A stretch of DNA of 24,000 nucleotides from Fidelibacterota bacterium UBA7300 (GTDB taxonomy: Bacteria; Fidelibacterota; Marinisomatia; Marinisomatales; UBA2128): contig DKQU01000041.1 of the NCBI GenBank assembly GCA_002471865.1, forward strand, positions 23,340 to 47,339. The letters run 5' to 3'. Under the pieces are notes generated by a model. The model was not told the origin of the DNA and did not search any database. It worked only from the letters and a program-made list of their open reading frames with translations. Made by a program: the position numbers and the translations under genes. Of this stretch, positions 17,473 to 23,001 are shown piece after piece (the stretch's first letter is position 1; every line of letters begins with the position of its first letter).

Positions 17473-18330
17473 TTGAAATCTAACAAAACTCTCCTCACTG
17501 CAACACTTTTATTGATTCTTTTCTTCTTTGGTTGTACTGCTCATCTGTTCAAGCACCATCCAAATCTAGCTGAACAACTCTTCGAGAAAAGGGTATCAAA
17601 ATCCGAGAAGCAGGTTCGTAAGCATCCTCGAGACAGCGCTGCTAAGTTGGAAGCGTGTAAAAATTTGACTATGTACGGTCACGTTTTCGTCTTACGTGAA
17701 TCCGAGATTATGGAAGAAGAAGATTTTACTCAAAGCCGAGAATTCCGGCTGGAGGCCAACAGTTTATTCCAGAATGCTTACAACTATGGTTTGGAGTCAC
17801 TTGATATTTTGCACCCTAGTTTTCAGGAGTCATTCCATAAAGATTCCGGAGTTATGCTGGGGAAAGTAACTATTGAGCAAGTTGATTATCTTTATTGGAC
17901 TGCGGCTGCACTTGGGAGTATGATCTCAACGGCAAAGGGTGACCCGTACGCAATTGCCGATCTTCCTAAAGTGGGTATTCTCATCGATAGGGCCATGGAA
18001 TTAAACGAGTCCTACGACAAAGGGAGTTTGCATGAGTTTATGATATCGTTCGTTCTCAGTCGTCCTGATTCACCTACTGATGCGATTGAAATTGCTAAAA
18101 ATCATTTCGACAAAGCTGTTGTACTTTCAGGCGGGAATCGAGCATCAGCATTTGTAACTTATGCAGAATCAATATGTACATTGGAGCAAGATCGATCGGA
18201 GTTTCTATCTATGCTCAATCGAGCCTTGGAGGTGGATGTTAACGCAGATCCTGATCTGAAACTATCCAATATCGTTTCTCAGGAACGGGCTGCATGGTTA
18301 AAGGAGCGAGTAGATGACCTCTTTTTCTAA
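17473..18330 (+). CDS. TatT-like TPR lipoprotein accessory component of a TRAP transporter (TPAT type)
   Basis: 285 aa, TTG start, lipobox LFFFGC, all-helical TPR-like sequence. It sits immediately upstream of dctP and fused dctQM, the same order as Treponema pallidum tatT-tatP-tatQM (recalled from the published TPAT description). Confidence 0.55.
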   Translation: MKSNKTLLTATLLLILFFFGCTAHLFKHHPNLAEQLFEKRVSKSEKQVRKHPRDSAAKLEACKNLTMYGHVFVLRESEIMEEEDFTQSREFRLEANSLFQNAYNYGLESLDILHPSFQESFHKDSGVMLGKVTIEQVDYLYWTAAALGSMISTAKGDPYAIADLPKVGILIDRAMELNESYDKGSLHEFMISFVLSRPDSPTDAIEIAKNHFDKAVVLSGGNRASAFVTYAESICTLEQDRSEFLSMLNRALEVDVNADPDLKLSNIVSQERAAWLKERVDDLFF

Positions 18331-18331
18331 C

Positions 18332-19327
18332 ATGTCTTTTTTTCGGAAAGCAGTAATCATATCTATCTTGGTTTTGGCTCCCGTTTTTATTCAGGCTCGT
18401 GTGGTTATTAAGATGGCTACACTGGCACCTAATGGTTCGCCTTGGCACGAGCTTTTGCTGGAAATGAGTCAGCGCTGGAAGAAGGCGACACGAGGAGAAG
18501 TGATAATAAAGATATATGCCGGCGGAGTGGCGGGAGAAGAGCGGGATGTGGTACGGAAAATGCGGATTGATCAACTGCAGGCTGCAGCGGTAACTGTCGA
18601 AGGTCTAACAGAAATCAGTCAGGACATGAACGTATTTTATATCCCCATGCTGGCTAAGACTTCGGAAGAACTCACGTTTATTAGAAACAACTTAACACCT
18701 GACCTAAAAAGTGATTTAAGCAGAAAAGGGTTCAAGCTTCTCGCTTGGGCTGATGTGGGGTGGGCATATTGGTTTACGAACAAAAAAGTAACTACTCCTA
18801 CTCAAATGAGAAAATTAAAGTTGTTTACCTGGGCAGGAGATTATCGTTTTGTAGATCTATATAAACAATTTGGTTTTCATCCGGTTCCTATGTCAACTGC
18901 AGATATGTTAACTTCTTTACAAACTAAAATAATAGATGGGTTTGCTACAACGCCAATGTTTGCACTCTCTTTCCAATGGTTTGCTTTGGCGCCAAACATG
19001 CTAAACATGAAATGGGGTCCTATCATCGGAGGTGTGGTAATCACCAAGGAAACTTGGAACAAAATTCCTGAAAAGTATCATCATGAGCTAGAGTCTATTT
19101 CTGCAGATATCGAGAAAAAAGCTGCTGAATTCGTGGTGATGACTGAGAAGGCTTTGGATGTTATGAAAGATAACAATCTCACTGTTCACGAACTGTCCGT
19201 TACAGAGATGAAAAAGTGGGAAGATCAAATGTTGGATGCTTATCCATATGTAAGAGGTTCAATTGTACCGGATGCGATATTTGATAAAGCAATTGAATTG
19301 AAAAGCGAGTACCGAAATAGGAATTAA
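18332..19327 (+). CDS. TRAP transporter substrate-binding protein (DctP family)
   Basis: The track ORF starts at 18314, but ATG 18332, one nt after the tatT TAA, gives a clean signal peptide MSFFRKAVIISILVLAPVFIQA. Mature start VIKMATLAPNGSPWH and overall length fit DctP-type SBPs. Confidence 0.8.
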   Translation: MSFFRKAVIISILVLAPVFIQARVVIKMATLAPNGSPWHELLLEMSQRWKKATRGEVIIKIYAGGVAGEERDVVRKMRIDQLQAAAVTVEGLTEISQDMNVFYIPMLAKTSEELTFIRNNLTPDLKSDLSRKGFKLLAWADVGWAYWFTNKKVTTPTQMRKLKLFTWAGDYRFVDLYKQFGFHPVPMSTADMLTSLQTKIIDGFATTPMFALSFQWFALAPNMLNMKWGPIIGGVVITKETWNKIPEKYHHELESISADIEKKAAEFVVMTEKALDVMKDNNLTVHELSVTEMKKWEDQMLDAYPYVRGSIVPDAIFDKAIELKSEYRNRN

Positions 19328-19393
19328 GAATATAATACAAGATACATTTAGTCAATCAATAGATTGTATAGATATAATTAATCTTCTAGGCTT

Positions 19394-21415
19394 GTGACTC
19401 GGATAGTAACAGTAGTAGCTGTTTTTTCACTGTTGGGTATGGCTTTGCTGCCTACTGTCGAATCTCTCAGTCGGATAGGTATTGGTATTCCACCCATTCC
19501 CGGTTCAGAGGGATTTGTTCTTCTGGCAACTCTATGGGTTGCATTTTTGGGTGCTATTTTGGCTGCTCGAGATAAACGTCTGTTGGCGTTATCACAGGAA
19601 GTAGAGTATTCAGATAACCAACCGGTTAGCTTGCGGACACTGTACAGCAATACCATGACTTTTGTGCTTGTGTCAGTCATGACCTACGCTAGTGCAGGGT
19701 TCGTCTTGGAGAATTTTGCTGCAGAGACAAAAGTAGTCCCCGCACCGTTCTGGGTAGTAGCAGTGATAATACCCATTGGATTCGCTTTAATAACTACTTC
19801 AGTATTCTTGGTGAGTCCTAGAAATATCCTTGTTCGAGGGTCCATGATTTTCGCAATAATTATTGTTTCGATCATGGGCTACTTTGAGTTGTTTACTCAG
19901 CCACAGTTCTTTTGGATAGGAGTTGTCTTGATTCTTGTCTCATTTCCTATGGGTGTCCCCATCTTTGCAGTTTTAGGCGGTTTATCCATGCTTATACTTC
20001 ATTACAATTTTGGCACTATTCAGACCATTGCGAATGAAGCTTTTACTATAACTGAAAAATATGAATACGCCACCATACCGCTCTTTGCTTTGACAGGATA
20101 TATTTTGGCGGAAGGGGGAGCACCCAAGCGATTAGTGGGGGTATTCCATAACTGGTTCGGTTGGATGCCGGGTGGAACTCCAATTGCGACTGCGCTGATT
20201 TGCGCTTTCTTCACAGCCTTAACGGGAGGTTCTGGTGTCACTATTCTTGCTCTTGGCGGACTCCTCCTGCCTATGCTGCGTGAAGAAGGTTATCCATTGG
20301 GATTTTCCATAGGATTAATTACCGTTTCCGGCTCACTGGGTCTTCTTTTTCCTCCAAGTCTACCACTTATCCTTTATGGCGTAAGAGGTGGTACTTCTAT
20401 GCAGTTAGGAATTGATAAAATCTTCCAGGCTGCTTTTGTCCCGGGACTTATTTTAGTGGGCTTGGTTAGCTTATGGGGAATCCGGCAGAGTTATATATCC
20501 AAAGTTGAACGGACTTCTTTTGATCTTAACCGGGCTGTAAAGTCTCTTTGGGAGGCTAAATGGGAGGTAGTGATACCTTTCCTAATTCTTCTCTCAATTC
20601 TTACAGGTTTTACCCGCCTCGTAGAGGTAGCTGCCATGAGTGCGGTTTATTCTCTCATTGTGGAAGTTTATATTTATAAAGACCTAAAACTGGATGATCT
20701 ATATAAAGTTGTTGCAAAATGCGCCAAATTCGTTGGAGGTATCCTTATAATCATTGCTATGGCAAAAGCACTTAATCTGGCATTTGTGGATATTTATTTT
20801 TACGAGACTATGATAAATTGGATAGAAAACAATATTCATAACAAATTTGTTTTATTGTTGGCACTAAACATCTTTTTACTCATTGTAGGGTGTCTAATGG
20901 ATATTTTTTCTGCGATCATTATCATTGTACCACTTATAAGTCAACTTTTCAGTTCGTCAACATTTTCTATGTTTGGAGAATTTTCTGAAGGTGGGATTGC
21001 CATGATGCTCGGGCTTCAAGCTGTTCATATCGCAGTTATCTTTATTGCCAATCTAGAGTTGGGTTATATAACTCCTCCCGTCGGAATGAACTTGTTTCTT
21101 TCGGCTTATCGTTTCGACAAACCTCTCTCAAAGATTTACCGAGCTACACTTCCTTACTTTTTGATTCTGTTGTTTGGTGTTATGGTGATTACTTACGTGC
21201 CTATCGCCTTCCCCGGACTGTTACCCGGTATAGAATCTTCCTCGACTGATAGCGACGAAGATGGAATGCCCGATTGGTGGGAAAAGGCATTTATGCTCAA
21301 TGTCAACGAAGATGATTCAGGAAAAGATTCTGATAAAGATGGTGTGACCAATCTGGAAGAATTTAATCAGGGAAGCAATCCACGAAAACCACCCGAGTTG
21401 GATGACAGTGGTTAA
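19394..21415 (+). CDS. TRAP transporter fused small/large permease (DctQ-DctM) with a C-terminal TSP3-like Ca-binding repeat tail
   Basis: 673 aa. The N-terminal approx. 170 aa have 4 TM segments (DctQ-like: LATLWVAFLGAILAARDKRLLAL). A polytopic DctM-like domain follows (IPLFALTGYILAEGG, FFTALTGGSGVTILALG, GSLGLLFPPSLPLILYG, ELGYITPPVGMNLFL). The last approx. 60 aa are soluble and acidic with two DxDxDG motifs. Confidence 0.85.
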   Translation: MTRIVTVVAVFSLLGMALLPTVESLSRIGIGIPPIPGSEGFVLLATLWVAFLGAILAARDKRLLALSQEVEYSDNQPVSLRTLYSNTMTFVLVSVMTYASAGFVLENFAAETKVVPAPFWVVAVIIPIGFALITTSVFLVSPRNILVRGSMIFAIIIVSIMGYFELFTQPQFFWIGVVLILVSFPMGVPIFAVLGGLSMLILHYNFGTIQTIANEAFTITEKYEYATIPLFALTGYILAEGGAPKRLVGVFHNWFGWMPGGTPIATALICAFFTALTGGSGVTILALGGLLLPMLREEGYPLGFSIGLITVSGSLGLLFPPSLPLILYGVRGGTSMQLGIDKIFQAAFVPGLILVGLVSLWGIRQSYISKVERTSFDLNRAVKSLWEAKWEVVIPFLILLSILTGFTRLVEVAAMSAVYSLIVEVYIYKDLKLDDLYKVVAKCAKFVGGILIIIAMAKALNLAFVDIYFYETMINWIENNIHNKFVLLLALNIFLLIVGCLMDIFSAIIIIVPLISQLFSSSTFSMFGEFSEGGIAMMLGLQAVHIAVIFIANLELGYITPPVGMNLFLSAYRFDKPLSKIYRATLPYFLILLFGVMVITYVPIAFPGLLPGIESSSTDSDEDGMPDWWEKAFMLNVNEDDSGKDSDKDGVTNLEEFNQGSNPRKPPELDDSG

Positions 21416-21582
21416 TATCAACTGTATTAACTCAAAACGTCGTAAATTGAATTCCTTGATATAAGGTGAACATGAGAATATATTCGACCCATAATTTTGG
21501 TGAGGATAGAATGGGAACACGTTTGGAAACTAGTCGTTAGATTTGAGAACATCTTATTACAGGCATCTGGAAAATTGAATTA

Positions 21583-23001
21583 ATGAGAAAAACACTTTAT
21601 AGCGTCGTTATTGCATTTGTTCTGTCACAAGGGACTTTATTTGGTATAAGTGAAGCTTCTGCACTATTCCTGCTTATTTCCCCCGGTGCCCGTGCTGGTG
21701 GAATGGGAGAGGCTCAGGTTGCTGTGGCAAATGATGCTTACGCCAGTTATTGGAATCCTGCCGGTCTTGCTTTCCTTGAAGATAGCGAGGTTGCACTTAT
21801 GCATGTAAATTGGCTGCAGAATTTAGTTCCGGACATGTATTATGAATTTCTCGCTTATCATAAACATGTTCCTTCATTAGGCACACTTGGCGGTCACGTA
21901 ATTTTTCTGAATTTAGGAGAACAAGAGCGACGAGGTGAAAACAACGAAGATTTGGGAACTTTTACCAGCTTCATGTACGCCTTGACTCTCTCTTATGGGG
22001 CTAAAATTTCACCTTATTCATCTATCGGACTTAATGCAAAAATATTACACCAAAATTTGACAGGTAAAGGAGCAGGGGCAGAGAGAGGTGAAGGCGTTTC
22101 CACAGACTTTGCTTTCGATCTCGCCTATCTTCAGAAGGGATTTTTAACACCCAAATTAGACATGGGCATTACTATTACAAATATTGGACCGAAAGTTTCA
22201 TTCATCGATGAAGCACAAGCTGACCCCATGCCTACAAATCTTACGTTAGGGTTGAATTATCGAATTATAGATACTGAATTTAACCGACTTAATCTTGTCG
22301 TCGATTTTGATAAGATGCTAGTGGCCTCTTATCCAGAGATGGACTGGGATGGTGATGGACGAGTCGGTTTATACAATGATAATGGGAAATATGTGGGTGA
22401 AGCAGGAGAGTACAATGAAGCTGGGGACCGCGAGGCCGCACATACAGATCCTATCTATCTGGCTTTCTTCACCTCTTGGCTTGATGATTGGTATTTAGGA
22501 GGTGACATAGATTGGGATGAAAACACTCATATCGGCGGATATTACGAAACCGGTTTGCGCAGTGGTGAGCTTTTCGATGATTATGGTGCCGACGGAATTG
22601 ATGGAACAGATGATGATGGTGAAGGTGACGGTGAGTGGGATGATGGTGAATCTTTTTCTGATGATAACGGAAATGGCGAGTGGGATTCCTATGAATGGGG
22701 AGACGAAGGATACGGAAAGTATAATTCCGACGGTGAACTGGAAATTGGAACAGGAGCCAACCGAAGTTTCTCTACCGAAATAGATGAGATGGTTTTCAAC
22801 TTAGGGTTCGAGTACTGGTACTCCAAATATTTTGCTCTTCGCGGAGGATATTATTACGATAAACTCGGAAAGATCAGCAATCCTACTTTTGGGATAGGAT
22901 TAAGATTCGCTGGATACGGTTTTGATGCAGGTTTTACACTTGGGCCTCCCGGACATCCACTTACCAATACAGTCAGATTTTCATTGAATATGGAGTTTTA
23001 A
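21583..23001 (+). CDS. FadL/PorV-like outer-membrane beta-barrel with a large Asp/Gly-rich insertion
   Basis: 472 aa with a signal peptide. N-terminal LLISPGARAGGMGEAQVAVANDAYASYWNPAGLAFL resembles the hatch motif shared by FadL-type and PorV/PorQ-type barrels. The protein ends in an aromatic residue (LNMEF). An approx. 140-aa acidic insertion lies in the C-terminal half. Confidence 0.6.
   Translation: MRKTLYSVVIAFVLSQGTLFGISEASALFLLISPGARAGGMGEAQVAVANDAYASYWNPAGLAFLEDSEVALMHVNWLQNLVPDMYYEFLAYHKHVPSLGTLGGHVIFLNLGEQERRGENNEDLGTFTSFMYALTLSYGAKISPYSSIGLNAKILHQNLTGKGAGAERGEGVSTDFAFDLAYLQKGFLTPKLDMGITITNIGPKVSFIDEAQADPMPTNLTLGLNYRIIDTEFNRLNLVVDFDKMLVASYPEMDWDGDGRVGLYNDNGKYVGEAGEYNEAGDREAAHTDPIYLAFFTSWLDDWYLGGDIDWDENTHIGGYYETGLRSGELFDDYGADGIDGTDDDGEGDGEWDDGESFSDDNGNGEWDSYEWGDEGYGKYNSDGELEIGTGANRSFSTEIDEMVFNLGFEYWYSKYFALRGGYYYDKLGKISNPTFGIGLRFAGYGFDAGFTLGPPGHPLTNTVRFSLNMEF

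Follow-up and report, generated by a model that had tools for sequence, protein, structure and literature searches.

Can the membrane permease of a bacterial uptake system end in a repeat met mostly in surface proteins and, if so, what may the repeat do there? The question is raised by the window, by which we mean the whole 24,000-nucleotide stretch of contig DKQU01000041.1 (positions 23,340 to 47,339) of Fidelibacterota bacterium UBA7300. A gene for a fused DctQM permease of the tripartite ATP-independent periplasmic (TRAP) type continues there, past the last transmembrane (TM) segment, with a tail carrying two motifs of the thrombospondin type 3 (TSP3) kind. The tail is a real and selected add-on to a known type of transporter; it is under purifying selection and, in the genomes searched, belongs to a single genus. 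The permease and the parts of its C-terminal region are listed below (aa, amino acids; AF2, AlphaFold2).

19394..21415, + strand: fused dctQM permease with tail, 673 aa (Pfam DctQ and DctM, TIGR00786, AF2 match to TRAP QM structures)
21125..21208, + strand: last helix, residues 578-605 (AF2 helix; TM12 of the M part, transport domain)
21209..21247, + strand: linker FPGLLPGIESSST, residues 606-618, partly conserved within the genus
21248..21283, + strand: first half-unit DSDEDGMPDWWE, residues 619-630, a weak match to the DxDxDGIPDxWE Ca-site motif
21284..21325, + strand: spacer, residues 631-644 (14 residues), corresponding to the GLN-type spacer of the repeat in proteins P0121 and P0123
21326..21382, + strand: second half-unit DSDKDGVTNLEEFNQGSNP, residues 645-663, the best Pfam TSP3_bac stretch
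21383..21412, + strand: C-terminal end, residues 664-673, of low conservation; its sequence varies, and G003, one of the four genomes of the genus, has 5 residues fewer

A real and selected tail, confined to one genus

The dctQM open reading frame (ORF) is one unbroken frame of 673 codons, the last codon ending at 21412 and the stop occupying 21413-21415. The hydrophobic core of the last TM segment, set by the hydropathy peak, spans residues 588-606, and the chain runs 68 residues past the last AF2 helix (578-605). The tail is made up by residues 612-673; residue 612 (G) begins at 21227, and DSDKDGVTNLEEF begins at residue 645 (21326). The coordinates given for the tail and its two units in an earlier, sequence-only reading of the window (21227-21412; 21248-21283; from 21326) are exact.

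Each of the four genomes that represent the genus (G000-G003) carries the fusion, overall identity being 80-86%, as do three protein clusters from metagenomes (P0001-P0003) and an independently assembled ENA contig featuring the same gene order. Invariant residues occupy 29 of 67 aligned tail columns, and include all the D and G of the DxDxDG motifs, the D/N and E that follow, PDWWE and NLEE. The pairwise ratio of nonsynonymous to synonymous substitution rates (dN/dS) in the tail is 0.13-0.17, and tail dS is like that of the permease body, a result which gives no indication of an overlapping RNA constraint. Two reverse-strand ORFs overlapping the region (21193-21351 and 21317-21520) were set aside as mechanical only, selection acting on the + frame and tail dS being equal to body dS.

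The same data bear on the possibility, raised in the earlier reading as a refutation, that the extension results from a frameshift or an assembly fusion with a small gene. The frame is open in four species-level genomes, in the three metagenome clusters and in the independent contig, and is kept by purifying selection. In other genera the gap between dctQM and the outer-membrane barrel gene downstream measures only 55-190 nt, so that no separate small gene is available for fusion. The alternative that the tail is an artefact of this kind, or that it lies in the cytoplasm (see below), is extremely improbable.

The distribution of the tail was monitored in a phylum sample of 401 genomes, 277 of which carry a DctM C-terminus. 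The alignment extends past the last helix in 4 of the 277, all members of the tail genus, and the tail is absent from the other 273; in other genera the chain ends within 7-10 residues of the ITYxP motif. Among the 120 closest database proteins 116 lack the tail and are 575-607 aa long, a 637-aa protein being likewise devoid of a C-terminal extension. Three wider surveys, none of them exhaustive, were directed at metagenomes, at words of the tail and at DNA patterns. Of the best 80 metagenome loci, which were those kept, 78 lack the tail and end 47-58 residues past the PPVGMNLF motif. The word-based search returned 11 candidates, P0001 being the sole DctM among the 5 that scored. The pattern scan covered 185,579 species genomes and, among at least 119 loci listed, only L128, which resides on the G003 contig, is a DctQM. 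A literature search for DctM and thrombospondin-type repeats retrieved unrelated papers only and none linking the two, in line with the earlier reading, to which no such fusion was known.

Family, origin and location of the tail

The tail contains one double unit of about 48 aa of the bacterial TSP3 repeat, and no further domain follows. Comparison of four species shows no variation at D, D, D, G, P, D, W, W and E of the first half-unit, nor at D, D, D, G, V, N, L, E and E of the second. Analyzed alone, the tail matches Pfam TSP3_bac (PF18884) in two stretches with 25.8 bits (E 9.2e-6), just over the cut-off of 25; the score within the full-length permease is only 17.1 bits, under the same cut-off. 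The stretch corresponding to the second half-unit (tail residues 34-55) covers positions 1-22 of the 22 of the profile. In BLASTP comparisons the whole unit of about 47 aa aligns with six tandem units of P0121, a 983-aa repeat protein from a marine archaeon (Thermoplasmatota); identities are 40-49% and the best E value is 2e-12. Units of the Opitutae protein P0123 align with it as well, identity ranging from 40 to 52% over both proteins. When 1.84 billion representative proteins were searched with a profile built on the tails of the four genomes (A1), 26,061 of them matched at E<=0.001, with up to 46 stretches per protein, each covering approximately positions 12-60 of the profile. All ten of the shorter top matches scanned are TSP3_bac proteins (28-303 bits). 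These comparisons assign the tail to the TSP3_bac repeat family, and the earlier description of TSP3-like repeats fused in frame to the permease C-terminus is correct.

The great majority of the relatives of the repeat are large repeat proteins, and most of those that bear a name are secreted, a finding that agrees with the earlier statement that the pattern is usual in secreted or cell-surface proteins. TSP3_bac arrays such as those of P0121 and P0123 share with the tail the double unit of about 48 aa, DxDxDG-(M/L)PDxWE, spacer and DxDxDG-xxN-xEE(F/Y)-xxG(T/S)(D/N)P. They differ in being formed by 6-46 tandem copies that serve as stalks or linkers, whereas the single copy found here closes the chain of a polytopic inner-membrane transporter.

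Other families come less close. The eukaryote-type Pfam TSP_3 domain (PF02412; cut-off 25 bits) has no match in the tail of the window, and scores under the cut-off with two genus orthologues (11.6-12.7 bits, E 0.11-0.23). The motif DxDxDGIPDxWE coordinates two Ca2+ ions in structures of PA-type binding components. The first half-unit matches this 13-residue motif of PA-type proteins (Binary_toxB, PF03495; Vip4, C2-II), the likeness being limited to the motif (15.7 bits against a cut-off of 25, positions 2-14 of the 78-position domain; E 0.58 in the PDB), with no homology beyond. The PDB search yielded no solved structure of the tail repeat, only sub-threshold motif matches of this kind. In the genome of the window, the pattern D-x-[DN]-x-D-G-[LMIV]-[PSTD]-[DN]-x-x-E is found at the two tail sites only. 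Single half-units of the form DSDxDG-xPD-(W/L/Y)-x-E, with no second half, reside in three large ORFs of this genome (C21:3098-6562, C107:145-1581 and C112:3-1121).

Within the order, the tail-repeat profile matches 6 of 151 genomes. Four of the matches are the tails themselves, and a search for a donor among the 147 genomes outside the genus found none, the only matches being two weak ones to secreted proteins. As hardly any other genome of the order contains the unit, an external source is probable, and a lineage-specific 3' extension by such a foreign unit is, judging from the sequences, the simplest origin. The two weak matches, L024:256-1194 (G307) and L025:3-1757 (G380), are the sole other double-unit matches in the order; they feature single or double TSP3 units apparently linking domains in probable secreted proteins, and the L024 ORF has a hydrophobic N-terminal segment resembling a signal peptide.

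The location of the tail follows from the fold of the permease. DctQ (residues 16-134; PF04290, 38.7 bits, cut-off 28.3) and DctM (residues 177-603; PF06808, 224.1 bits, cut-off 23.8) lie in a single chain, both above curated cut-offs as in fused DctQM proteins, and the chain scores 292.9 bits with NCBIfam TIGR00786 (cut-off 268.45). The AF2 model of the permease (predicted template modelling score 0.73) has the elevator-type QM fold, matching 9pym, 8thi, 8y4w and 7qe5 with E values from 2e-19 to 7e-15; the Foldseek probability is 1.00 for 9pym, 8thi and 7qe5. Fold (query-normalised template modelling score 0.58-0.62) and helix order are shared with HiSiaQM (7qe5, 8thi), PpSiaQM (7qha), FnSiaQM (8y4w) and IseQM (9pym). 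In PpSiaQM the M subunit has 12 TM segments and is N-out/C-out, Q is N-in/C-in, and TMs 4-6 and 10-12 form the transport domain (PMC9971032). By homology, the M part of the window's permease would resemble the solved permeases in being N-out/C-out, with TM12 in the transport domain. It differs in length: the alignment reaches residue 629 of 635 in 9pym_A and 415 of 427 in 7qha_B, the solved chains ending 6-12 residues later, whereas the permease of the window runs about 67 residues further.

The charge pattern points to the same side of the membrane. The loop before the last TM segment contains four K+R and one D+E, residues 607-673 five K+R and 18 D+E, and the net charge of the tail (612-673) is -13. 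The periplasmic location proposed in the earlier reading is thus upheld by SiaQM homology and by the positive-inside rule, both of which argue against a cytoplasmic tail, and this location, as well as the anatomy outlined above, is held with high confidence. The tail would thus leave TM12 at its periplasmic end and be carried by the elevator domain, which moves, on the face used by the binding protein for docking. A precedent for TSP3-type repeats in the periplasm is provided by TraB of Myxococcus xanthus; the OmpA-like domain is periplasmic. Short Ca-binding TSP3-type repeats link the barrel of TraB to this domain, according to Dai et al. (2017) as cited in PMC12045341. The repeat joins there two domains of an outer-membrane protein, whereas here it ends an inner-membrane permease.

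In the AF2 model of the whole permease the predicted local distance difference test (pLDDT) score of residues 611-673 is 28-42, and no packing against the permease is predicted. AlphaFold has no Ca2+ and would see only disorder in a fold needing the ion; low tail scores are expected in such a case, and the model is uninformative here.

Two metagenomic relatives of the permease have extensions of other kinds. A DctM C-terminus on contig PVBE010935669.1 (L192:1501-1860) carries a different acidic tail of about 70 residues, featuring a repeated LPLGN-(I/L)-DLEA motif and an Asp-rich end, which is not TSP3-like; acidic periplasmic DctM tails may have arisen more than once. A DctM relative on contig RCNC010037329.1 (L215) has a strongly basic extension of about 50 residues past the last TM segment. 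It may be a frameshift or read-through artefact, because a basic periplasmic extension would break the positive-inside rule.

The operon and the outer-membrane barrel

The permease gene is the third of an ordered set, the other members of which, and a segment specific to the genus in the last one, are the following.

17473..18330, + strand: tatT, tetratricopeptide repeat-type T-component lipoprotein of the TRAP system (Pfam TAtT, PF16811, 184.2 bits)
18314..19327, + strand: dctP-type substrate-binding protein (Pfam DctP, 139 bits; NCBIfam TRAP_S1, 290 bits)
21583..23001, + strand: PorV/PorQ-family (FadL-like) 14-strand outer-membrane barrel (NCBIfam PorV_fam, 253.7 bits, cut-off 90)
22546..22692, + strand: genus-specific Asp/Gly-rich insertion of about 40-49 residues in a long barrel loop (residues 248-403), from sequence comparison

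The gene order is tatT-dctP-dctQM, followed by the barrel. The tatT and dctP genes share 17 nt, and the gap between dctP and dctQM is 66 nt long. TatT was read as a lipoprotein by eye, from its N-terminal Cys. The barrel scores 200.7 with the PorV equivalog model, under the cut-off of 250. A TatT-family gene shares the operon with dctP and dctQM, and the system is therefore a member of the TatT-associated TRAP (TPAT) type. It resembles TPAT systems in having a TatT-family protein, a DctP-type binding protein and a fused DctQM, and differs from them in the 62-residue TSP3-type tail of the permease and in the FadL/PorV-like barrel that follows the operon in this order. The named database relatives of the permease are from Candidatus Marinimicrobia, Neomarinimicrobiota or Fidelibacterota.

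TatT adjoins TRAP genes in 25 of 25 relatives searched, and the barrel lies directly 3' of dctQM in all 12 loci inspected; by both counts, the four genes look like one conserved unit. The order tatT-dctP-dctQM-barrel is kept across the order (window 17473-23001; loci L002-L012 and L145-L158). TatT proteins bind long-chain fatty acids and are common among marine microbes; binding of both the binding protein and a hydrophobic ligand is known for Tp0956 and Es_TatT only (PMC11713862). Since TatT proteins bind such ligands, the four-gene unit is plausibly a trans-envelope route, predicted to carry fatty acids from the outer to the inner membrane. The uptake system of the tailed permease is probably of the fatty-acid type.

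The barrel insertion is present in G000-G003 and absent in six other genera. In the AF2 model of the barrel (14 strands; pLDDT 64.9, a moderate confidence) the loop formed by residues 248-403 lies between strands 9 and 10. Turns of 2-3 residues follow strands 2, 4, 8, 10 and 12. As short turns follow the even strands, the usual rule would place the loop, and the insertion with it, on the extracellular side. A Ca bridge from the tail to the barrel insertion is disfavoured, the loop being extracellular by strand order and beyond the reach of a periplasmic tail. The G001 barrel translation (L002, G001:C72) contains X residues, corresponding to ambiguous bases, inside the acidic insertion, which suggests assembly uncertainty or strain variation in a repeat-like stretch.

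What the tail may do

The best explanation, which as a whole has about an even chance of being right, is that an acquired TSP3 tail, folded by Ca2+ into an acidic knob, is engaged in the predicted capture of the DctP-type protein. The 3' extension of dctQM would have been gained in the ancestor of one Fidelibacterota genus. Its two DxDxDG loops would bind Ca2+ at the level found in seawater, folding the tail, the net charge of which is -13 before Ca, into a small and strongly acidic knob. This knob would help to capture, or to hold, the DctP-type binding protein at the permease, in a genus where that protein is much less negative. Binding of Ca2+ by the tail is likely, and none of the canonical Ca-ligand positions varies among the four species. 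Recruitment of the binding protein is ranked first among the roles envisaged, and is a speculative and rather doubtful one. In a model of HiSiaPQM the C-terminal lobe of the binding protein rests on the elevator domain (PMC9352664).

The charges of the partners were compared. The net charge of mature DctP is +1, +3, -4 and -3 in the tail genus, versus -6 to -14 in six other genera; for the TatT core the values run from -11 to -15 in the genus and from +3 to -13 elsewhere. The permease body (-1 to +3 in the genus, +1 to +10 elsewhere) shows no basic shift. Lys or Arg residues specific to the genus are found in DctP at positions 57, 115, 137-138, 157-158, 178, 205, 254 and 285. A general drift in composition was rejected as the source of the DctP shift, because the permease body is unshifted and loci of equal GC content (L005, L009 and L010) keep an acidic DctP. 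Loss of acidity in DctP is paired with a gain of negative charge on both proteins to which it presumably docks, which hints weakly at recruitment by charge. Several observations speak against this explanation. The charge pattern rests on a single lineage, and the basic substitutions are scattered along DctP. G007 has an acidic TatT (-13) yet no tail, and is a partial counter-example. All other lineages manage without the tail, which is hence not needed for transport, and the tail and TatT, both acidic, would repel each other in the absence of a Ca2+ bridge between them.

The tail might instead be a Ca2+-stabilised cap or spacer having no specific protein partner, an alternative that is possible, if not likely. 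Such an element might lend stability to the transport domain at its periplasmic end or shield it there, or act as a cation buffer at the surface of the membrane; it might also be an addition of slight benefit that became fixed in one lineage. The restriction of the tail to one genus, every other lineage working without it, fits this view, as do the presence of a single unit with nothing beyond it and the AF2 model, in which the tail (pLDDT <45) does not pack on the permease. The enlarged acidic barrel loop of the same genus may point to a general trend in the lineage, and the acidic tail of the metagenomic DctM at L192 is an unrelated instance. Yet a dN/dS of 0.13-0.17, along with the invariance of the ligand, PDWWE and NLEE residues, denotes selection on specific residues and not on charge alone, and the opposite charge shifts in DctP and TatT fit a partner better.

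It is very unlikely that the tail works as a Ca2+-mediated anchor, binding the permease to the neighbouring barrel or the cell wall so as to build a fixed trans-envelope uptake complex. The earlier reading had listed peptidoglycan and the barrel, next to TatT and the binding protein, among the partners that the tail could hold in a Ca-dependent way. The barrel gene comes directly after dctQM in the 12 loci inspected, the same genus gained the Asp/Gly-rich insertion, and the TSP3-type repeats of TraB join a barrel to a wall-binding OmpA-like domain (PMC12045341). The insertion, however, lies between strands 9 and 10 of the AF2 barrel model (pLDDT 64.9), a position which, judging from the order of the strands, is on the outside of the cell. 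Moreover, the last helix belongs to the moving transport domain, so that a rigid tie to the wall or to the outer membrane would hinder movement and is disfavoured, and the approximately 45 residues past the linker, once folded, would be short for spanning the periplasm.

The capture of the DctP-type protein by the knob can be given a more specific form, which is improbable as it stands: the Ca2+-loaded tail on the moving domain would be a built-in docking aid for a fatty-acid-carrying binding protein, or for a complex of TatT and binding protein. TRAP transporters strictly need a soluble binding protein docked on the permease, and how this docking is tuned is a current question in the wake of the recent SiaQM structures. 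A selected, predicted Ca-binding periplasmic appendage on the moving domain is a simple natural handle on whether additional contacts alter the capture of the binding protein. The case is of moderate importance, since it concerns a single uncultured genus of the marine Fidelibacterota (Marinimicrobia/SAR406). If the tail is such a docking aid, TRAP uptake in this genus would respond to periplasmic Ca2+, and a new way to couple a binding protein to an elevator transporter would be at hand, one for which acidic tails, such as that at L192, may have evolved repeatedly. The case also shows that an inner-membrane transporter can recruit one copy of a repeat whose usual setting is giant surface proteins.

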